This document shows positions 30,752 to 40,981 of a stretch of 64,000 nucleotides of DNA, piece after piece (position 1 is the first letter of the stretch; every line of letters begins with the position of its first letter). Under the pieces are notes generated by a model. It saw only the letters and a list, made by a program, of their open reading frames with translations. It did not search any database and was not told the DNA's origin. The translations under genes were made by a program, and so were the position numbers. The stretch comes from Deltaproteobacteria bacterium (GTDB taxonomy: Bacteria; Myxococcota_A; Polyangia; Polyangiales; Houyiibacteriaceae), in contig JAXMNT010000020.1 of assembly GCA_034670305.1 (NCBI GenBank), positions 32,001 to 96,000 of the forward strand, given 5' to 3'.

Positions 30752-33751
30752 GTGTCGCGAACGCTCGTCATCGTAGAGAGCCCTGCCAAGGCCAAGACCA
30801 TCGGGAAGTACCTCGGAAAGGACTTCGTGGTGGAGTCGTCCGTCGGGCACATCCGGGATCTCGCCGTCCCGAAGCAGCTCTCGAAAGAGCAGCGCAAGAA
30901 GAACGTGTACATCGACGGCTACGCGGTTGACGTCGAGAACGATTTCCTGCCCATCTACGTGGTCGACGCCCGCAAGAAGTCGACCGTCGCCGAACTGAAG
31001 AAGATCCTGAAGGGTTCGGACGAACTCCTGCTCGCGACAGATGAAGACCGCGAAGGAGAGAGCATCGCCTGGCACCTCGTCGAGGTGCTCAAGCCCAAAG
31101 TGCCCGTGAAGCGCATGGTGTTTCACGAGATCACGAAGAAGGCGATCCTCGAGGCGGTCGGCAAGCCCCGCGAGATCGACCAGAACCTCGTCGACGCGCA
31201 GGAAGCCCGCCGAATCCTCGACCGGCTCTACGGCTTCGCGATGAGCAAGATGACGTGGCGCCGCACCAAAGGCCGCTCCGCGGGCCGGGTGCAGAGTGTC
31301 GCCACCCGCATCGTCGTGGAGCGGGAACGCGAGCGCATGGCGTTCCGCCGCGCGAGCTACTGGGACGTCGACGGCGAGTTCGCGGCGTCCGACGCGAAGT
31401 TCCCGGGCCACCTGCTGGAGATCGACGGCAAGCGGGTCGTCAGCGGCAAGGACTTCGGCGACGACGGCAAGTTGAAGAAGACGACGGTCGCACATCTCGA
31501 CGAGACCGCGGCCCGAAAGCTGGTGCAGGACCTCGGACAAGCCACCTTCGAAGTGGCCCAGGTGCAGAAGAAGCCGACCACCCGTCGACCCTCCCCGCCC
31601 TTCATGACGTCGACGCTTCAGCAGGAAGCGAGCCGCAAGCTCGGCTGGGGTGCGCAGACGACGATGCGGGTCGCGCAGTCCCTCTACGAAAACGGTTTCA
31701 TCACCTACATGCGTACGGACTCCACGACGCTGTCGCAGACGGCGCTCGACGCCGCGCGCACGCAGATCGCGGAACTCTACGGCAAAGACGAGGTGCCCGC
31801 GGCGCCCCGTCAGTACAACCGCTCCGTCAAGAACGCCCAAGAGGCCCATGAGGCCATCCGCCCCGCCGGCGACTCGTTCCGCACCCCGGACGACGTCGCG
31901 CGCGGTCTCGGCAAGAACGAATCCCGCCTGTACGAGCTCATCTGGAAGCGAACCGTCGCCTCGCAGATGAACGACGCCAAGGGCGAACAGGTCAGCGTGC
32001 GCATCCTGGCGAAGACGCCCGGTGGGCAGGAAGCCATGTTCTCGGCCAGCGGACTCACCTGGACCGCGCCCGGCTTCTTCAAGGCCTACGTCGAAGGCAG
32101 CGACGACCCGGAGGCCGAGCTCGAGAGCAAGGAACGCACGTTGCCGCCGCTCGCTCAGGGACAGAAGCTGGGCGGCGGTCCGTTCGAGGCCAAGGGCCAC
32201 GAGACCCAGCCGCCCGCGCGCTTCACAGAAGCCACGCTGGTCAAGAAGCTCGAAGAGCTCGGGGTCGGCCGGCCGTCCACCTACGCGTCCATCATCACGG
32301 TGATCCAGAACCGCGGCTATGTCTGGAAGAAGGGCCGCGCGCTCATCCCCAGCTTCACCGCGTTCGTCGTGGTTCGACTGATGGAAGATCACTTCGCGGA
32401 CCTGGTCGACTACCAGTTCACCGCGCGGATGGAGGACGATCTCGACGCGATCGCGAGCGGCGCCGCTGGCCGCAACGAGTACCTGCGCAAGTTCTTCCTG
32501 GGCGACGACACCAGCGACTCCGACGCCAAGAAGGGCCTCGAAGTCCGGGTGAAGCAGAAGCTCGAGGACATCGACCTCGACGAGACCAAACGCCTCGAGA
32601 CGATCCCGCTCGGCAAAGCCGACGACGGCCGCGAGTTCGTGGTCCGCATCGGTCAGTACGGCCCCTACCTCCAGGTCGTCGGCGAAGAAGGCGCGACCGC
32701 GAGCGTGCCGGACGACATGGCGCCGGACGAGCTCACCATCGAGAAGGCCATCGAGCTCTTCGAGGCGCCGAGTGGCGACCGCGAGCTCGGCACCGATCCA
32801 GACACGGGCAAGAAGGTGCTGCTGCGCGCCGGGCGCTTCGGGCTCTACGTGCAGCTCGGCGAAGGCGGCAAAGACAAAGAGAAGCCTGCGACCGCGAGCC
32901 TCTTCAAGTCCATGGACCCCGAGACCGTCACGCTCGAGGAAGCACTCAAGCTGCTCTCCTTGCCGCGCACCGTGGGTGTCGCGGAAGACGGCGTGGAGAT
33001 CCAGGCCCGCAACGGCCGCTTCGGTCCGTTCGTGACCAAGGGCACCGACAACCGGAACCTCGAATCCGAAGAAGCGATCTTCACCGTGACGCTCGAGCAG
33101 GCGCTCGAACTCTTCAAGCAGCCGAAGCGCCGCCGCGGTCAGAAAGAGACCCCGGTCCTCAAGGAGCTGGGGACCGATCCGGTCAGCGAAGGCAAGATCG
33201 TCCTCAAGGAAGGCCGCTGGGGCCCCTACGTGACCGACGGCGAGACCAACGCGTCCCTACGCCGCGGCGACACGATCGAAGAGATCACCCCGGAGCGCGC
33301 GCACGAGCTCTTGGCGTTGCGCCGCGAACGCGAGGCGAACTCACCGAAGAAGCCGAAGAAGAAGGCCGCCAAGAAGAAGGCCGCCAAGAAGAAGAAGCCG
33401 GCCAAACAGCTCGACACCGCGCTCGTCGCAGCCGCCGAGAAAGCGGTCGCCGGCAAGGGTGACGGCCGCATCGGACTCGACGACGCGAAGATGCTGCTCG
33501 GTCTGGTCAAAGACGGCGGCAAGTACACCGACATCGAGAAACACACCGTCTCGCACCTGCGCAAGATGACGTGGACCGACGAAGCCGATAAGTGGTTCCG
33601 CTCCGAGATCCGCAAGTGGACCACCTCCATGGGCCGCGCCGCGAAGACCACGAAGAAGGCGACCAAGAAGAAGGCCGCCAAGAAGAAGACGGCCAAGAAG
33701 AAGACGGCCAAGAAGAAGGCGGCCAAGAAGAAGGCGGCCAAGAAGGCCTGA
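30752..33751 (+). CDS. topA: DNA topoisomerase I (type IA) with C-terminal repeats and Lys/Ala-rich tail
   Basis: [51 protein letters not shown]-like repeats. Confidence 0.97.
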
Positions 33752-33819
33752 CTCGGGTCCCAGCCGCTGCGGGTCAAGAAGGTTGATCCGTCCAGGCGTC
33801 TGAGTCGTATAGTCCGATC

Positions 33820-34209
33820 GTGACCTCCCCTGCCTACCGCCGGACCGACGCCGCCTTTGGGCTGCTGTTGTGGATCCTGGGCGGGGAGTTTCTTCCTTTG
33901 GCGCATCTGGTGATGCACGAGGACCTGGGCGAGCACACCCACGACGCGCACGAACGCGCGCACGAACAGGGACGCGCCCACCCCCACCCCGAGCCGGAAG
34001 ACGACAGCGACCCATCGACCGGGCCGTCTTCCCAGGCGCACGGCGAGGGCAGCTTTGCCCATCACGACGAGATGATGGCGCAAGGCGCGCTGGCACCGCC
34101 GCTGGTCCCACCGACCCGCCTGGGCGTGCCGCCGGCGCTCCCGTCGCCGTGGACGCCCGCCGGCCGGACCTTGGTCCGGACCGCCAACGCGCGCGCTCCT
34201 CCGGTCTGA
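33820..34209 (+). CDS. His-rich exported/membrane peptide ending in RAPP (DUF2946/CruR-like upstream ORF)
   Basis: Hydrophobic N-terminus, His-rich middle, Pro-rich tail ...NARAPPV*; TATAGT 6 nt before GTG. Confidence 0.75.
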   Translation: MTSPAYRRTDAAFGLLLWILGGEFLPLAHLVMHEDLGEHTHDAHERAHEQGRAHPHPEPEDDSDPSTGPSSQAHGEGSFAHHDEMMAQGALAPPLVPPTRLGVPPALPSPWTPAGRTLVRTANARAPPV

Positions 34210-34241
34210 ACGACCTCCGAAACCATCGTTCGTGAGCGACC

Positions 34242-34292
34242 CAGGTCTTGAGATCAGGTCTTGAGATCCGTCTGAGATCTCTGCCTGAGATC
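34242..34292. repeat. Four TGAGATC direct repeats including an exact 13-bp duplication
   Basis: TGAGATC at 34249, 34262, 34273, 34286; CAGGTCTTGAGAT twice. Confidence 0.8.
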
Positions 34293-34410
34293 GCCGCTCG
34301 CCATTCCGTGAAGCGGGATCTTTGGCATCCCTGCCTCCGTCTTCATTCGTGTCCGCTCGATCTCGAGTTCGAGCTGGGCTCTTCCTTCTCCAACGAAGCG
34401 TTGCCTTCGC

Positions 34411-37185
34411 ATGCCCTCTTCTTCCGCGCAGTTCGCGTCCGGAGTCTCCGTGGTGCTGTTGCTCGTTGCGTTCTCCTCGAACGCGTCGGCACAGAACAAC
34501 ACCCCGGAACGCGTGCCGCCGTCCGTCGGGCACGCGCCGGCCGTCGCCTGGCCCGCGGGGGCGCCGGAGGGGCCGCGAGAGGTGGTGGTCGTGCTCTCGC
34601 TCGAGGTCGACGCCGACGGCGTGCTCACGGGCGCCCAAGTGGTGACCGCGCCTCTCCCATCGGTCCTGTTTCGTCGAGCGGCGCTGGCCCACGTCGCGCA
34701 GATCGTGTTCCGCCCGGCGACGGTGGATGGCGTGCCCGTGGCGGCGCGGGTTCAGTACGCAGTGCGGTTCCGGGCGCCAGTGGCGGCCGACGTGGGGGCT
34801 GAGACCGACGCCGAGGCCGACGCCGAAGCCGAGGCCGACTCCGAAGCGGATGGCGAAGCCGACTCCGACGCCGACGCCGACTCCGATGCCGAGGCCGATG
34901 CCGACTCCGATGCCGATGCCGATGCCGATGCCGGTGCCGATGCCGATGCCGATGCCGATGCCGATGCCGATGCCGATGCCGATGCCGATGCCGATGCCGA
35001 CTCCGACGCCGACTCCGGCTCCGACTCCGACTCCGAAGCTGGTGCCGGTGCCGACTCCGACTCCGACTCCGAAGCCGGTTCGTTCGGGGCGCGGGGGTGG
35101 ACGGATCTGGATGTCGTCGAGCGGCCGCCGGCCGCCGCGAGTGAGTCCGACATCCAGCTCACCGCTTTCCGTTCGGTGCCCCGGCGATCCGCCGAAGAGA
35201 ACCTGACGCTCGCGCCTGGGATCGTGCTCGCGAACCATGGCGGCGAAGGCAAAGCGAGCGGCATCTACCTGCGCGGGTTCGATGCCGGTGAGGGGCAGGA
35301 CGTGGAGGTGCTCGTCGATGGCATCCCGCTCAACGAACCGAGCAACGCACACCTGCACGGCTACGCCGACAGCCACTTTCTGATCCCCGAGCTCGTAGAG
35401 AGCCTGCGTCTGCTCCCGGGTCCGTTCGACCCGGCGCAAGGGGACTTCGCCCTCGCGGGCACCGTCGAACACCGCCTCGGCGCGGACGAACCCGGCCTGC
35501 AGATCTTGGGCGGCTACGGATCGTACGCGCGCCGCCGCGCGTTGCTGCTGCTCGCGCAGGACGAACAACGGTTCGTCGGTTTCGAAGTCCAGTCGGGCGC
35601 AGGCTTCGGCATCAACCGACAGCACCGCAACGTGCGGCTGCTCGCGCGGTGGGGCGGCGGCGACGGCCGGCTCAGGTACCACATCACCCTCGCGAGCCAC
35701 GCGCTCCGCTTCGATTCCGCCGGGGTGGTTCGGTCCGACCGCGTGACGGCCCGCGCCCTCCCCTGTGCCTCGGACAGCGACGCCCAGTTCTTCTGCACGG
35801 ACGACAACAACCAAGGCGGCTCGGCTTCCCGGCACCTCGTCGCCGCCCACCTGGACTGGCGGCGTCCCGGCCAGCGGTACCGGCAAGTCGTATGGGCCCA
35901 GCTGCGACGCAACCGGTTCCGAGAGAACTTCACCGGCACCCTCTTCGACGAGCGCGGCGATGGGCTCGACGAGCTGACCGACACCGTCACCGTCGGACTT
36001 CGGGGCGACTACGTCACCGACGCACTCGTCCGGCGCGGTCCACTGCGCGGCCTTCGGCAACAGCTGGAGCTTGGCTACCTCGCGCGCCACGACCGCGGCG
36101 AGTCCCGGATGTTTCGGGTGCGCGGCACGGGTGAACCGCATTCGGTGGTGTTCGACGACGACCTCGCGCTCACCCACGTCGCCGCCCACGTCACCGGCGT
36201 GTTGCGGGTGCCCCGGTTGTCCGTCCGCGCGGGTGCGCGGATCGCAGGGTTCGTCTTCTCCACCGTGGACCACAACCAACCGGAGATGGACCGAGTCGGC
36301 GAACGACTGCCGGAACAGTCCACCGAAGCGTTCGGCATCGCGTTGCTGCCGAGGATGAGCGCCGCGGTTCACCTGCTCGAGGGGTTCGACTGGACCACCA
36401 GCCTCGGTCTCGGGAGTCGATCCAGCGATGCGCGCGCGCTCAGCGAAGGCGAGTCGGCACCGTTCGCCCGGGCGCGTTCCGTGGAGAGTGGCTTGTCCCT
36501 GCTCCGAACGGTGGGAGACGTGAAGTTGGACGCGCGGGCGGGCGCGTTCTGGACGAACGTCGATCGCGATTTGCTCTTCGACTCCGAGTTCGGACGCAAC
36601 GTGCCGCTCGGCGAGACCCAACGGTTCGGCGCGTTCGCGTCGCTCGGGGTTCACCTGGACGATTGGGTGGACCTGCTCGGCAGCTTCGCGTGGACCGAAG
36701 CACACCAGGCGCTCGATGGGGCCGGACCGTTCGATCTCACGAGCGGCCCCCGACTGCCCTTCGTACCCCGCTTCGTTGGACGGCTGGACGCCGCGCTTCG
36801 CCGCGAAGTCAAAGTGCGCAACGACGGTGTCGTCTTCGGGCTCGCCGCCGGTGCCAGCCTCATCGGTCGGCGCCCGCTGCCGAACGAGCAGCTGTCTCAG
36901 CGCATCTTCGTGGTGGATGCCGCCGGCAGCATGCGCTGGCGCTGGCTCGAACTGGACATCGCGGTCCGCAACCTGCTCGACACGCGCTACCGCGCGGTCG
37001 AGCTGCAGTACGAGTCGCGCTTCGCCGCGGACGACTTCGGTTCGCTGCGCCCGGCCCGCCACTTCGCCGCGGGTCCGCCCCTCGAGGTCATGACGAGCCT
37101 CACCGTGCACCTGGACCTCCAAGCGTTCCGAAGTGTGTCCCAAGAAGACGCGTCCGCGCCGTCGAACCCAAGTGAGACCCCATGA
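34411..37185 (+). CDS. TonB-dependent receptor with N-terminal TonB-C domain and (DA)n linker
   Basis: [47 protein letters not shown] plug; NLLDTRY. Confidence 0.92.
34800..35075 (+). repeat. In-frame hexamer array (GCCGAT/GCCGAC/TCCGAC) encoding an Asp-Ala/Asp-Ser linker
   Basis: Read directly inside the receptor gene. Confidence 0.95.
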
Positions 37186-37991
37186 CCCGCCCCATCCAGC
37201 TGCCCGTGCTCTGCGTCCGAAGCGCAGTGCCAGCTCACCGAAGCGCAGTGCTGTCCTCGAGAATCGCTGTGCTCTTCGCGCTCGCCCTGCCCTTTCTCCC
37301 CACCCCTGGGTGCGGCGCGGGAACCGGCGCGCCGATCGTCGACGCGTCTTTTGCGATCGGCGGCAGCGACGCGGCGCGGTCCTTCGCGACCTCTGCGGGT
37401 TGGCAGGTCGAGCTCACCGAAGCGCGCATCGTGCTCGGACCCATCTACGCGTTGGCACCCCGCGACGAAGTGCCCATGGCCTTGCGCCTTTGGCCCACGT
37501 CGGTCGCCCGCGCCCACGGCGGCTTCGACGCACTCGATGGCCGCATCGTGCGCATGGAGGTGCTCGATCAGTTCCTCGTCGACGCCCTCGCGCCGGAGCC
37601 GCAGATCATCGCGACGCTGGCCGAAGAAGGCCGCGCCACCGAACTGTCGGTCGGCATCCTGCCACCGGTCGATCGGCACGTAGAAGCAACCCGCGGCTTC
37701 GATGTTTGGGTCGAGGGCACGGCCCGCCAAGGAGAGACCGAGGTGCCCTTCAGCGGCGGCCTCGATCTCGGCGACGACCCCATGGCGCGCCGAGTCCAGA
37801 ACATCGACCTCGACGCGAGCCTTGCCGAAGGCGGCACACTCCAGCTCTTGGTCGATGCGCGCGTCTGGCTCGACGGCGTCGACTTCGACCGGGTCGACGG
37901 CGAGTTCGCCCTGGACGGCCAGGCCCACGCCGCGCTCCGCGTCGGCGCGCGGCGACCCACTGCATTTTCGGCGACCTACCAGGCGCCCTAA
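37182..37991 (+). CDS. Probable lipoprotein in receptor operon
   Basis: Hydrophobic stretch then PGC; GWQVEL..A.I.LGPIY, ARAHGG; ATGA overlap. Confidence 0.75.
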   Translation: MTRPIQLPVLCVRSAVPAHRSAVLSSRIAVLFALALPFLPTPGCGAGTGAPIVDASFAIGGSDAARSFATSAGWQVELTEARIVLGPIYALAPRDEVPMALRLWPTSVARAHGGFDALDGRIVRMEVLDQFLVDALAPEPQIIATLAEEGRATELSVGILPPVDRHVEATRGFDVWVEGTARQGETEVPFSGGLDLGDDPMARRVQNIDLDASLAEGGTLQLLVDARVWLDGVDFDRVDGEFALDGQAHAALRVGARRPTAFSATYQAP

Positions 37992-38023: not shown

Positions 38024-38929
38024 ATGACCATGAACAACACCCATCGCCCGCGGAGAGCTGGAATCGGCTCCCTGATCCTTCTCGCCATCGTTGCGTGCGG
38101 CAGCGGGTCCACCGGCACCCTCGAAGTCCAACTCTCCGGTGAAGAAGCCAGCCAAGTCGGCTTCCCGGTCGGTGAAGGCGAGGGGCTGATCGCCTTCACC
38201 GATGGCTGGCGCATCGCATTCGATCGTGTGCTGGTCTCCGTCTCCGAGATCCACGTGCGCGCCTCGGACGGAGACGACGCGCTCGTCATGGCCGATCCAG
38301 TCGTCGTCGACCTGCATCTCGGCGAGCCGATCGCCTGGCGCTTCGAGAACGTGCCTTCGCGCCGCTGGGACCGCGTGTCGTACCAGTTCGCGCCCGCCAC
38401 TTCGGCGAGCCGCGGCGTGGGCGACATCTCCGCCGACGACGTGCAAGCCATGGCAGCCGGTGGCCACTCCTTCTGGATCGAAGGCACCGCCACCCGCGGC
38501 GAGGAGTCGGTGGCGTTCTCCTGGCAGTTCGACGCCTCCATCGAGAACACCGGCTGCATCAACGGCATGGACGAGACCGATGGTCTGGTCGTGCGCGAGA
38601 GCGGCGTCAGTGGTGTGCAGCTCACCGTGCACTTCGACCACCTCTTCTTCGACAGCTACGCCCACGACGATCCGCAGCTGCGTTTCGATCCCATCGCGGC
38701 GGTGGCGGGAGACGACGGCGTCGTGACGCTCGAGGAACTCGCCTCCCAATCGATCGTCGACATGCGCGACGCCGAAGGCGCACCGATTCTGATCGACGGC
38801 GCCCCCCTGACCTACGACCCAGGCGACCTCGACATTCCGACGACCGACCTGCGCGCGTACATGATCGGCGCCCTGAGCACGACGGGACACTTCAACGGCG
38901 AAGGCCACTGCGACTACGAGTTGCGTTAG
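38024..38929 (+). CDS. Lipoprotein in receptor operon, possible metal-binding
   Basis: IVAC lipobox; FTDGWRIAF, HFDHLFF, GHFNGEGHC. Confidence 0.78.
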   Translation: MTMNNTHRPRRAGIGSLILLAIVACGSGSTGTLEVQLSGEEASQVGFPVGEGEGLIAFTDGWRIAFDRVLVSVSEIHVRASDGDDALVMADPVVVDLHLGEPIAWRFENVPSRRWDRVSYQFAPATSASRGVGDISADDVQAMAAGGHSFWIEGTATRGEESVAFSWQFDASIENTGCINGMDETDGLVVRESGVSGVQLTVHFDHLFFDSYAHDDPQLRFDPIAAVAGDDGVVTLEELASQSIVDMRDAEGAPILIDGAPLTYDPGDLDIPTTDLRAYMIGALSTTGHFNGEGHCDYELR

Positions 38930-39324
38930 TCGGCGCAGGTGTCGCAGAGGCCGCGCAGCTGCACTTCTTCGACGTGGGCCACGCCCGTCACCGCGACCGA
39001 CTCGATCGGGAGGCACGCCACGGTGCCGCACTCGGTACAGAGCAGATGCGGATGCTCCTGGTGGCGCTTCTCGCTCGCGAGCTCGAACCGCCACACGTGG
39101 TCGCCGTGGTCCGAGCGTTTCGCCAAGCCCACTTCGACCAGGTCGCTCAGGTTGCGGTAGAGCGTCGCGCGGTCGAACCCGCGGGCGGCCAGACCGTCGT
39201 TCACTTCGGAGTGGCTGAGCGGCCGCGTCGCTGCCAGAAGCAACTCCAGCACCGCCATGCGGGCGCCGGTCGCTCGGAGCCCATGGGCCCGGAGCGCGGC
39301 TTTCAGCTCGTCGACACTGGCCAC
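38926..39324 (-). CDS. Fur-family regulator (Zur-like)
   Basis: GLRATGAR, DRATLYRNL, HPHLLCTECG, CDTC. Confidence 0.9.
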   Translation of the reverse strand: MASVDELKAALRAHGLRATGARMAVLELLLAATRPLSHSEVNDGLAARGFDRATLYRNLSDLVEVGLAKRSDHGDHVWRFELASEKRHQEHPHLLCTECGTVACLPIESVAVTGVAHVEEVQLRGLCDTCAD

Positions 39325-39361
39325 CCGCACAGCATCCCACGCACCCCCGCCATCAGCAACC

Positions 39362-39398
39362 ACAACCCAGTTGCAAAAACGACCCGGTTGCGTACGGT
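39362..39398 (+). promoter_or_regulatory. Divergent promoter region: TTGCAA-16-TACGGT overlapped by two ACRACCCRGTTGC repeats
   Basis: Repeats at 39362-39374 and 39379-39391; -35 at 39371, -10 at 39393. Confidence 0.55.
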
Positions 39399-39403
39399 GC
39401 AGC

Positions 39404-40981
39404 ATGGTCGCCGCTTTGGCCATCTCTGTCCTCTCGGTCGTGTTCGGTGCGTTGCTCGCGCTGGGCCGTCGACGTTGGGCCATGCACGGGCTGCAGACGT
39501 TCGCGGTCGTGGCCGCGCTCGCGGTCGTGCTCATGCACCTGCTGCCCGAAGCATTCGTGGGGGCCGGCATCGGCGCACTGGTCGTGTTCGGCATCGCGTT
39601 CGGTGCCGCGCGCCTTCTCGACCGGTTCCACACACACGACGTCGACGCGGCCGATCCGGCACGGAAGGAGTGGGGTCTCGAGCTCGGCTTCTGGGCTTTG
39701 TGTCTGCACAAGCTCATGGATGGCCTCGCGCTCGGCTGGTACGCGCGGCAGGGCTTCTCCCGCTTCTCGGGCGGCCCGAACTTCGACGTGCTCTTCGCGC
39801 TCGCCGCCCACGCGGTGCCGGTGACCGCGCTCGTCGTCATCGCCTACCTGCCGCGCGGCACGAAGGTCGCCCTCACCCGCGCCGCGTGGTTGGCCGGCAT
39901 GAGCGTCGCGGGTGTGCTGCTCGTGCGGGTGCTTCCCACGAGCCTCTACGTGCCCGTCGCACCGTGGATGGCGGCGGTCACCGGCGGACTGCTCTTGCAC
40001 GTGGTCTCGCACTCCCACGGCGCCGACGCGCGGTCGCACGACGGGCCGATCCCACTGCGTTCGCGGGTCGTCGACCTCCTGGCGATCGGTGGCGCGCTGA
40101 TGCTCGTCGTGCTCGCTCGAGGGCCCGTCGGTCCGGCCGGCGACATCCGCTGGCGCACCGTCGACGCATTCGTCGAGCTCGGTCTCGAAGTCGCGCCCGT
40201 GCTCGTGGTCGCACTGCTCGCCGTCGCGCTGCTCCGCACCAGCCTCGAACGCACCCAGCTCGGTTCGCGTGTGCTCTCGGTATTGGTTCCGCTGGCTGCG
40301 ATCGAGACCCTCGCCGTCTCGACGCGGCTGCTCGGGGAATCGTTCGCGGCGCTTCGCGTCGCCAACGCGATCGGCATCGCGCTCGTCGCCGGCGCGCTCG
40401 TCCGGCACAGCCGCAAGAAACAAGAGCCCACCACGCTCGCGCCGCAGCTCGATCGGCTCTTCGCGCGCACCGTCCCGTGGACGTTGATCGGGTTGCTCGC
40501 CGCCGCGTACGTCCAAGTGCTCCTTCCCCCTCAAGCGCTCGCCCAGGTCTCTCTTGGGACCGCGTTTCTGGTGGTGACCCTCGTCGCGGTCCCGAGCTAC
40601 ATGTGCCCGGTCGCGGTCACGCCGCTCGCAGCGGTACTCATCGCCCGCGGCCTGCCCGCAGGGGCCGTTCTTGCGGGGTTGCTGCTGGGCCCTGCACTGC
40701 ATCTCACGATGGCCAACCACCTCGCACGCAGCCACGGCCGCAAAGCAGCGCTGCTCTTCGTCGGCATCGTGCTGACGCTGGCCTGGGGCGCCGGTGGGTT
40801 CGTCGAATGGTCGGAGCTTCCGATCGCGCTGCGGGTCGAAATCGAGCCGCACCTGCACCATCCGCTCGAACAGCTCGCCCTCGGCATCTGCGCCGCGGTC
40901 GTGGCGCGGATGCTCTATCTGTTCGGAATTCATGGTTTCTTTGCGACGGCGAGCCCCGACCGGTCCCGCATCGCCGTCTGA
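39404..40981 (+). CDS. Membrane protein: ZIP-like N-terminal half fused to DUF318/ArsP-like permease half
   Basis: HLLPEA, HKLMDG, AHAVP, GLLLHV; then PSYMCPVAVTPLAAVL..G...GAVLAGLLLGPA. Confidence 0.75.
   Translation: MVAALAISVLSVVFGALLALGRRRWAMHGLQTFAVVAALAVVLMHLLPEAFVGAGIGALVVFGIAFGAARLLDRFHTHDVDAADPARKEWGLELGFWALCLHKLMDGLALGWYARQGFSRFSGGPNFDVLFALAAHAVPVTALVVIAYLPRGTKVALTRAAWLAGMSVAGVLLVRVLPTSLYVPVAPWMAAVTGGLLLHVVSHSHGADARSHDGPIPLRSRVVDLLAIGGALMLVVLARGPVGPAGDIRWRTVDAFVELGLEVAPVLVVALLAVALLRTSLERTQLGSRVLSVLVPLAAIETLAVSTRLLGESFAALRVANAIGIALVAGALVRHSRKKQEPTTLAPQLDRLFARTVPWTLIGLLAAAYVQVLLPPQALAQVSLGTAFLVVTLVAVPSYMCPVAVTPLAAVLIARGLPAGAVLAGLLLGPALHLTMANHLARSHGRKAALLFVGIVLTLAWGAGGFVEWSELPIALRVEIEPHLHHPLEQLALGICAAVVARMLYLFGIHGFFATASPDRSRIAV

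Follow-up and report, generated by a model that had tools for sequence, protein, structure and literature searches.

A histidine-rich, RAPP-tailed peptide gene ahead of a TonB-dependent receptor gene in Myxococcota, and its candidate role as a metal-sensing arrest leader

The DNA analysed here—a stretch of 64,000 nucleotides, referred to below as the window—comprises positions 32,001 to 96,000 of contig JAXMNT010000020.1 from a Deltaproteobacteria bacterium (assembly GCA_034670305.1; Myxococcota_A, family Houyiibacteriaceae). It carries, at 33820-34209 on the forward strand, an open reading frame (ORF) for a short, histidine-rich and putatively exported peptide, followed directly by a gene for a TonB-dependent receptor. 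On balance, we find it somewhat probable that this peptide is a cis-acting leader that senses a metal and, by arresting translation, controls the receptor operon. Sequence comparison gives good support for the gene, its family, the arrest-type tail, the set of conserved histidines, the fixed distance between those histidines and the tail (the ruler) and the link to the receptor; stalling, metal binding, membrane topology, a leaderless start and the direction of regulation we infer.

The peptide gene, its family and its conserved parts

Judged from comparative data, the ORF is a real gene belonging to a large unannotated family. Of 41 relatives examined by six-frame search, 9 have homologs at 30-47% identity; a profile built from seven sequences detected homologs in 18 of 401 genomes drawn from the whole phylum, and in 9 of 22 from the window's own family. 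A hidden Markov model scan of 1.84 billion representatives returned 343 clusters (50% identity) at E<=1e-3, with 142 at E<=1e-10. The named members are all titled 'hypothetical protein' and come from metagenome-assembled genomes (MAGs) of Polyangiaceae, Myxococcales or Sandaracinus, and a narrower alignment used as the query gave 15 related loci, titled as Myxococcales, Polyangiales or Sandaracinaceae MAGs. Pfam and NCBIfam assign no family to the product, and a word-indexed protein search matched nothing beyond the window's own protein. One weak His-rich match (L008) is a different lipoprotein and was dropped, and two loci (L049 and L051) that did not match the motif pattern are left out of the locus counts given below.

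Within this genome the ORF is present as a single copy, and its third-position GC content (GC3) of 0.84 lies within the range of the neighbouring genes (0.83-0.90). A first-pass annotation of the same DNA, made from the letters alone, had reported a 129-residue ORF with particular His-rich strings, a NARAPPV end and no cysteine; all of these are found in the sequence, which encodes 11 His, 18 Pro, 17 Ala and 0 Cys. The span that it gave for the feature, 33808..34410, ends as it should at the base before the receptor ATG, but its first base lies 12 nt 5' of the only possible start codon—the 12 nt from 33808 onwards are in frame with the ORF, contain no ATG, GTG or TTG, and begin with a -10-like hexamer, TATAGT (33808-33813).

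The conserved parts of the peptide (Table 1) were read from a MAFFT alignment that sets the window protein beside the 150 best representatives (n=151). At the C-terminal end the near-invariant columns are A124, R125 (148/151), G/A126, P127 (149) and P128 (148). R[AG]PP is found in 144 of the 150 representatives (121 RGPP and 23 RAPP), mostly 1-13 residues from the end; one other has RSPP, and the remainder are two with RDPP and three that appear to be truncated. Arrest at RAPP/RGPP has been demonstrated experimentally for other peptides (PMC12992588, PMC9426467; here and below, statements about published systems rest on parts of the sources cited), and these are strong stall motifs that proteomes avoid (EMBO J 2025, PMC12992588). 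Myxococcota proteomes under-represent both RGPP and RAPP, with a mean bias of 0.29 and 0.47, respectively (PMC12992588 supplement); of the 18,316 high-GC3 open frames in the present genome, just 34 have R[AG]PP within their last 22 residues, whereas each of four control tetrapeptides occurs there in 58-67.

The stretch between H81 and R125 measures 43 residues in 131 of the 148 sequences and stays within 42-44 in every one; the other linkers vary freely, from 13 to 90 residues for H33-H56 and from 3 to 80 for H56-H74. By its fixed length, the 43-residue ruler parallels the CXXC-45-RAPP ruler of CruR, a copper-responsive peptide of Bordetella pertussis discussed below. In the first His cluster, each column holds His in 137-151 of the 151 sequences, with the exception of H56 (101/151). 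The second motif is kept at H74 (149), G75 (129), S78 (108), L79 (118), A80 (118) and H81 (150), with R82 also near-invariant across the family, as are E23, P26 and D62 outside it. No conserved Cys column is present in the 151-sequence alignment, the commonest Cys being at position 15, in the helix (47/151). The Cys-free, His-based design that had been proposed from the single sequence thus extends to the family, with about ten near-invariant His columns.

At the other end of the peptide, an AlphaFold2 model built from 79 sequences has a single confident helix at residues 4-33 (pLDDT 83-96), with coil beyond it (pLDDT 60-80). The hydrophobic stretch, AAFGLLLWILGGEFLPLAHLV, is preceded by an Arg-containing N-terminus, and alignment positions 2-9 are mostly Arg across the family. 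This pattern of helix and charge makes an N-in/C-out signal-anchor, or else a signal peptide, probable; taken with the positive-inside rule, the Arg-rich N-region would place the His-rich part in the periplasm. The export-like N-terminus noted in the first-pass annotation is therefore backed by the predicted helix and by the family-wide Arg-rich region. The same annotation had suggested conservation of RAPP and of position as a check, and here the family agrees with it—R[AG]PP near the C-terminus, the His columns and synteny are all kept at 30-47% identity.

By the Pfam model, the ORF is not a member of DUF2946 (PF11162), the family of CruR. This model (gathering score 23.7 bits) did not match the ORF at E<=0.1, nor any of 31 genomes, the window's own among them, at E<=0.01; 6 of 60 representatives of the peptide family gave full-length matches below threshold (15-19 bits). 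In an hhalign comparison of 79 family members with five true DUF2946 proteins (CXXC plus RAPP) from the same phylum, only 20 tail columns aligned (probability 1.9%, E 0.026); an Atlas neighbour search, which serves only as a lead, placed a DUF2946 cluster third (0.95). The ORF shares with DUF2946 the RAPP-type tail and an analogous fixed spacing (43 versus 45) counted from a different anchoring motif, and its lack of any Cys leaves it without the metal motif of CruR (CXXC) or of CutF, a related sensor from Rhodobacter capsulatus (CXXXC). Given the absence of a DUF2946 match and an alignment confined to the tail, we treat it as a family of its own that is built in the same way. Among the genuine DUF2946 proteins of the phylum, one (L054, G259:C1) has CXXC plus H-x3-H-x3-H after the helix, as in the peptide family, and may be an intermediate form.

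Table 1. Features at and around the peptide gene (window coordinates).
Feature	Position	Strand	Description
Promoter-like pair	33783..33813	+	TTGATC (33783-33788), 19-nt spacer, TATAGT (33808-33813)
Upstream ORF	33820..34209	+	129 aa, GTG start, TGA stop; His-rich putative exported peptide, C-terminus NARAPPV; from ORF list and raw sequence
N-terminal helix (predicted)	33829..33918	+	Residues 4-33, hydrophobic core 11-31; conserved W18, G21, E23, P26, H29, H33; Arg-rich stretch ahead
First His cluster	33904..33987	+	H29, H33, H39, H41, H44, H48, H54, H56 (residues 29-56)
Second putative sensor motif, HGEGSFAHH	34039..34065	+	H74-H82; family consensus HGxGSLAHR
Pro-rich ruler	34063..34191	+	Residues 82-124; length fixed, sequence poorly conserved apart from Pro-rich start
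Arrest-type motif	34192..34209	+	R125-A-P-P128, then Val and TGA; from sequence and family alignment
Intergenic spacer	34210..34410	+	201 nt; C66 T54 G50 A31; C 0.33 versus G 0.25
TonB-dependent receptor	34411..37185	+	924 aa: signal peptide, TonB_C-like, acidic linker, Plug, barrel
269-aa protein	37182..37991	+	No Pfam family; tblastn homologs in 8/20 related loci, in each of which the receptor shares at least 42% identity with that of the window
297-aa lipoprotein-like protein	38036..38929	+	MbnP-like predicted fold; conserved C-terminal GHxxGEGHC
Fur-family regulator gene	38926-39420	-	Overlaps head-to-head with the permease gene
574-aa permease	39257-40981	+	Weak ZIP-like part plus ArsP/SO_0444-type Cu/Zn transporter part

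The receptor operon and the metal that may be sensed

In the window and in 16 related loci, the next gene on the same strand encodes a TonB-dependent receptor, with Plug in 17 of 17 and TonB_C in 10 of 17 (a Pfam count that leaves out L047 and L050). The first-pass annotation had placed the upstream ORF (uORF) ahead of such a receptor, across a 201-nt spacer described as partly pyrimidine-rich. Both points are borne out, the receptor lying directly downstream in all 17 loci, the window's spacer being 60% pyrimidine, and its receptor matching Plug (1.5e-11) and TonB_C (1.3e-6). The early part of this receptor (34411-35100) has the TonB_C-like domain at residues 48-121 and then, ahead of Plug, some 90 residues of acidic (DA)n/(DS)n repeats. 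Its PDB matches were to the BtuB plug only, with no sequence relation to CrtA/BfrG. We considered and rejected a split-TonB arrangement, in which the His helix and Pro-rich peptide would complement a TonB_C carried by the receptor; TonB_C is on just 10 of the 17 receptors, and the peptide lacks a C-terminal domain.

The receptors fall into two groups, one 42-55% identical to the window's receptor and the other about 25% identical. Homologs of the 269-aa and 297-aa proteins follow the first group only, and the genes flanking the second group are unrelated; the conserved unit is therefore the peptide gene plus the receptor. The 269-aa protein shares one 39-residue stretch with the 297-aa protein (E 4e-5) and may be a distant paralog of it.

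Copper is a weak lead for the metal that the peptide may sense, for the first receptor group only, and it comes from the modelled fold of the 297-aa protein. The AlphaFold2 model (pLDDT 94.4) aligns with the copper protein MbnP (7L6G_A) in VIA-align at Z 9.9 and rmsd 3.8 A over 193 residues, the next entry reaching Z 6.2; in Foldseek all six top rows are MbnP (E 6e-3 to 5e-2, TM ~0.3), and an Atlas search gave MbnP as a lead at 0.91. No Pfam match to MbnP (PF20243) was found in this protein at E<=0.1, nor the WxW motif whose Trp becomes kynurenine, and the operon contains no haem peroxidase gene for an MbnH partner. The protein has conserved motifs of its own, HxDH and GHxxGEGHC, and at least 158 relatives, all from Myxococcota and all named hypothetical. 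MbnPH-like genes have been noted in operons headed by CruR (Roy et al. 2022, PMC9426467). The all-His ligand set of the peptide fits Cu(II), Zn, Ni or Co. Sensing of Zn, Ni or Co, as suggested in the first-pass annotation, is favoured by nothing that we found; the sole contextual hint, the MbnP-like fold, points weakly to copper.

The neighbouring Fur-family and ZIP/ArsP genes are, by sequence search, not conserved beside the peptide gene. A Zur- or Fur-controlled zinc locus was accordingly discarded as a conserved feature—tblastn found neither the Fur-family gene nor the permease in any of 20 related loci. On the other side, 68 nt before the peptide gene, ends the gene at 30752-33751 (+) for a 999-aa protein with a long Lys/Ala-rich C-terminal tail, which in its N-terminal sequence resembles DNA topoisomerase I. 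Elsewhere in this genome, outside the window, an open frame at C2:15650-16039 (+) has a hydrophobic N-terminal stretch, ends in SWARAPPIA and lies 34 nt before a long ORF resembling a multi-pass permease; it is a candidate for a second RAPP leader.

Start of the message, proposed mechanism and coupling to the receptor

The promoter-like pair in Table 1 ends 6 nt ahead of the GTG start. A TAnnnT word ending 6-9 nt before the start codon is found in 11 of 19 loci against a background of 0.0014 per position (the loci are related, so these counts are not independent), and in 10 of these 11 a -35 match of at least 4/6 lies 17-19 nt further upstream. A Shine-Dalgarno (SD)-like 4-mer precedes the start in just 2 of the 19, and GTG is the commonest start codon. 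The closeness of TAnnnT to the starts, combined with the scarcity of SD words, implies that many family members are probably translated from leaderless mRNAs, and suggests a leaderless transcript at this locus. A promoter scan with 16-18-nt spacers found no sigma-70-like site at 33600-34600; the candidate pair was missed because its spacer is 19 nt long.

The mechanism that we propose would begin with an mRNA that probably starts at or beside the GTG and is hence leaderless. Guided by the Arg-rich N-terminus and hydrophobic helix, the nascent chain would arrive at the inner membrane and expose its His-rich part on the periplasmic side, and the ribosome would stall on reaching R125-A-P-P128, as it does at other RAPP/RGPP peptides. 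During the stall, a constant 43 residues would separate HGxGSxAH from the arrest site, which would put this motif at the exit of the tunnel or just beyond it, and the eight-His cluster would already be out. A divalent metal—our best guess is Cu(II), with Zn, Ni and Co possible—may then bind the histidines, so that the chain compacts or pulls and the duration of the stall changes. Stall duration would in turn set the amount of receptor; by analogy with CruR, a long stall might mean that the receptor is on at low metal. The relay from stall to receptor is probably not Rho-dependent termination.

In the search for Rho, the Pfam domain Rho_RNA_bind (PF07497) has no match in this genome, which is 96% complete; a sample of 201 genomes from the phylum has it in 152, in few of the window's order, and in none of 13 from its family, several of which are 100% complete. 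Controls for this search matched in E. coli and eight others. TIGR00767 scored above its cut-off in none of 21 relatives, the best matches (60-87 bits) covering the ATPase part only, and when the whole genome was searched by tblastn with a 415-aa Rho of the phylum, only the ATPase segment (residues 138-384) aligned, at 28% identity. Five genomes that carry the uORF (G118, G191, G201, G211 and G231) are among those in which no Rho was detected.

The spacer itself is 65% pyrimidine over its last 110 nt, and C exceeds G in 11 of 16 spacers. It contains four TGAGATC words at 34249, 34262, 34273 and 34286 (steps of 13, 11 and 13 nt) within a tandem array at 34242-34292. The spacers of two loci from two other genera (L032 and L044) have, in the same place, three-copy tandem repeats of unrelated sequence, of about 17 nt and about 35 nt.

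Several points weigh against the arrest-leader reading, and none of the three routes examined for its output step found support. The spacer ranges from about 36 to about 207 nt across loci (two of the assumed receptor starts, in L037 and L039, are off a start codon), and this spread fits no single simple coupling. With no Rho found in the genome or in 13 sampled genomes of its family, Rho-dependent control, which the first-pass annotation had raised, is unlikely, and with it a CruR-like output. Two of 16 spacers contain a terminator-like hairpin, as do 8 of 96 control windows, and the one such site in the window's spacer (34365-34381) is within chance expectation, three having been found against 0.9 +/- 1.2, the other two elsewhere. 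We also modelled the stall in 16 loci as a 32-nt footprint at the RAPP codons, forced open under equilibrium folding, the receptor start codons of the relatives being uncertain. Accessibility of the ribosome binding site (RBS) in the window went from 0.39 to 0.40 and, in a second run, from 0.43 to 0.40—no unmasking—and over the 16 loci it went from 0.36 to 0.38 (p 0.16; p 0.46 against mock stalls). The likeness to MbnP is one of fold only (TM ~0.3) and is absent from loci with the second receptor type. The comparisons demonstrated no homology to DUF2946, so the case for the mechanism rests on likeness of design and not on common descent. CruR and CutF respond to copper in opposite directions (CutF preprint 10.1101/2025.02.05.636593), so the direction of control here cannot be inferred from them. 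Finally, once released, the peptide could in addition function in its own right.

The alternative that survives best, though we consider it unlikely, is translational control of the SecM/MifM/CutF type, in which the stalled ribosome melts mRNA structure that hides the receptor RBS. This is the usual Rho-independent output of arrest peptides (CutF preprint 10.1101/2025.02.05.636593); in the minimum-energy fold of the window the RAPP-coding stretch pairs with receptor codons ~5-10, and 5 of the 16 loci gained more than 0.1 in RBS accessibility under the modelled stall. The null results in the window and against mock stalls nevertheless stand against it, as do a fold z-score of -0.93 for the spacer and an arrest site 210 nt from the receptor start; the receptor start codons of the relatives are also uncertain, the assumed offsets in L037 and L039 not falling on start codons.

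A less probable alternative is that the peptide is mainly a working small membrane protein, such as a periplasmic metal chaperone anchored in the inner membrane or a partner of the receptor, with the stall keeping the mRNA close to the membrane or setting the timing of insertion, and not sensing metal. The helix has invariant polar residues (E23, H29 and H33), which are unusual for a mere signal peptide, the coil is modelled with moderate confidence (pLDDT 60-80), and the receptor and downstream proteins are all exported. Against this, strict 43-residue spacing with an unconserved sequence suits a co-translational device and not a mature protein, and the peptide is predicted to be unstructured after the helix; CruR and CutF were not detected as stable proteins (PMC9426467, PMC9973294).

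We regard the exact CruR mode as very improbable here. In that mode, the RAPP stall would shield a rut site in the 201-nt spacer, and metal would free the ribosome, allowing Rho to end transcription ahead of the receptor gene. The design resembles that of CruR and the spacer is long with C above G, but the PF07497, TIGR00767 and tblastn searches found no Rho in the host or, for PF07497, in the 13 family genomes, and five uORF-carrying genomes likewise have none detected. A chance ORF can be dismissed: long spurious frames are common in high-GC genomes, and six other frames overlap this stretch, but the comparative data refute the idea, with frame, motifs and synteny kept across many genera and in 343 clusters.

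A more specific version of the arrest-leader reading can be stated, and we hold it as doubtful. The peptide would be a Rho-independent, leaderless, all-His arrest peptide, in which compaction of a ten-His chain 43 residues from the peptidyl-transferase centre tunes an RGPP/RAPP stall, possibly in response to a metal other than copper, and in which the relay is neither Rho, nor an intrinsic terminator, nor a simple RBS hairpin. If true, arrest peptides would have a way of passing on a stall that has not so far been described. Those known to sense a metal belong to two copper systems that use Cys, CruR and CutF; an all-His sensor with an equally strict ruler would show a modular design in which the ligand set is exchanged while ruler and stall are kept, and could thus report other metals or periplasmic Cu(II). 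The family would also be a natural counterpart to the laboratory force-sensor assays that use arrest peptides to follow co-translational, metal-dependent folding. Since it occurs in a lineage without detected Rho, it probably cannot use the sole output mechanism proven for a receptor-linked member, and this lineage would be a good system for learning how a stall otherwise reaches the downstream gene.

Comparison with known arrest peptides

CruR (Bp2923, Bordetella pertussis) is among the closest matches in design. It consists of a signal peptide, a CXXC motif, 45 residues, and RAPP three residues from the end (PMC9426467); it heads a receptor operon with a 162-bp spacer, and copper acting via CXXC relieves the stall, upon which Rho terminates transcription (PMC9426467). 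The CXXC-RAPP spacing, which is 45 +/- 1-2 in DUF2946, matters for regulation (PMC9426467), and CruR has been found to stall in vitro and to control its receptor (PMC12992588). Like CruR, the peptide described here is small, putatively exported and first in an operon for a TonB-dependent transporter, with a long spacer and a candidate ligand motif at a fixed distance from RAPP (45 residues in CruR, 43 here). Unlike CruR, it has about ten invariant His in place of CXXC, RGPP is commoner than RAPP in its family (121 versus 23), no PepSY_TM gene is found in the operon, and no Rho was found in the genome.

CutF (Rhodobacter capsulatus) is a DUF2946-like, co-translationally exported copper sensor with a CXXXC motif, in which a stall at PPP opens a stem-loop over the next RBS (PMC9973294; 10.1101/2025.02.05.636593). 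The present peptide resembles it as a putative exported sensor with a Pro-rich C-terminal stall motif, and differs in having no Cys motif and in that no stem-loop was found over the next RBS. CutF-like proteins form 29 sequence clusters, of which clusters 14 and 17 have His-rich motifs only and lie next to HupE/UreJ genes, other metals having been proposed for them (Ozturk et al. 2023, PMC9973294). These His-only clusters adjoin HupE/UreJ and not TonB receptors, but they may overlap with our peptide family. The text supplements of PMC9973294 yielded no Myxococcota terms.

Genes for TonB-dependent receptors are preceded more often than expected by small proteins that have an export signal and RAPP or RGPP (RAPP 5450 versus AAPP 722; PMC12992588), and the peptide has the traits of this 'TonB-related' class of Gram-negative phyla—a small protein, an inferred localisation signal, a C-terminal motif, and a receptor next on the same strand. 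The class is defined by motif and neighbour, and the parts of PMC12992588 used here describe no His-rich subfamily, ruler, leaderless start or Rho-less host. Arrest peptides of the ApdA/ApdP/SecM type likewise combine an R-A/G-P-P type motif, acting at the peptidyl-transferase centre, with an N-terminal export signal, and are released by pulling force; those peptides monitor the export machinery and precede sec/yidC genes, whereas the His set and receptor neighbour of the present peptide point to a metal input.

The novelty that the first-pass annotation had suggested therefore holds in part. Both the His-only CutF-like clusters (PMC9973294) and RAPP/RGPP uORFs ahead of TonB receptors (PMC12992588) had already been published, but in the open-access literature that we searched, no paper dealt with an arrest peptide of Myxococcota that is His-rich and linked to a receptor. 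As a class, such leaders are known; what is added here is a lineage in which no Rho was found, together with a candidate all-His sensor held at a strict distance from its arrest-type tail.

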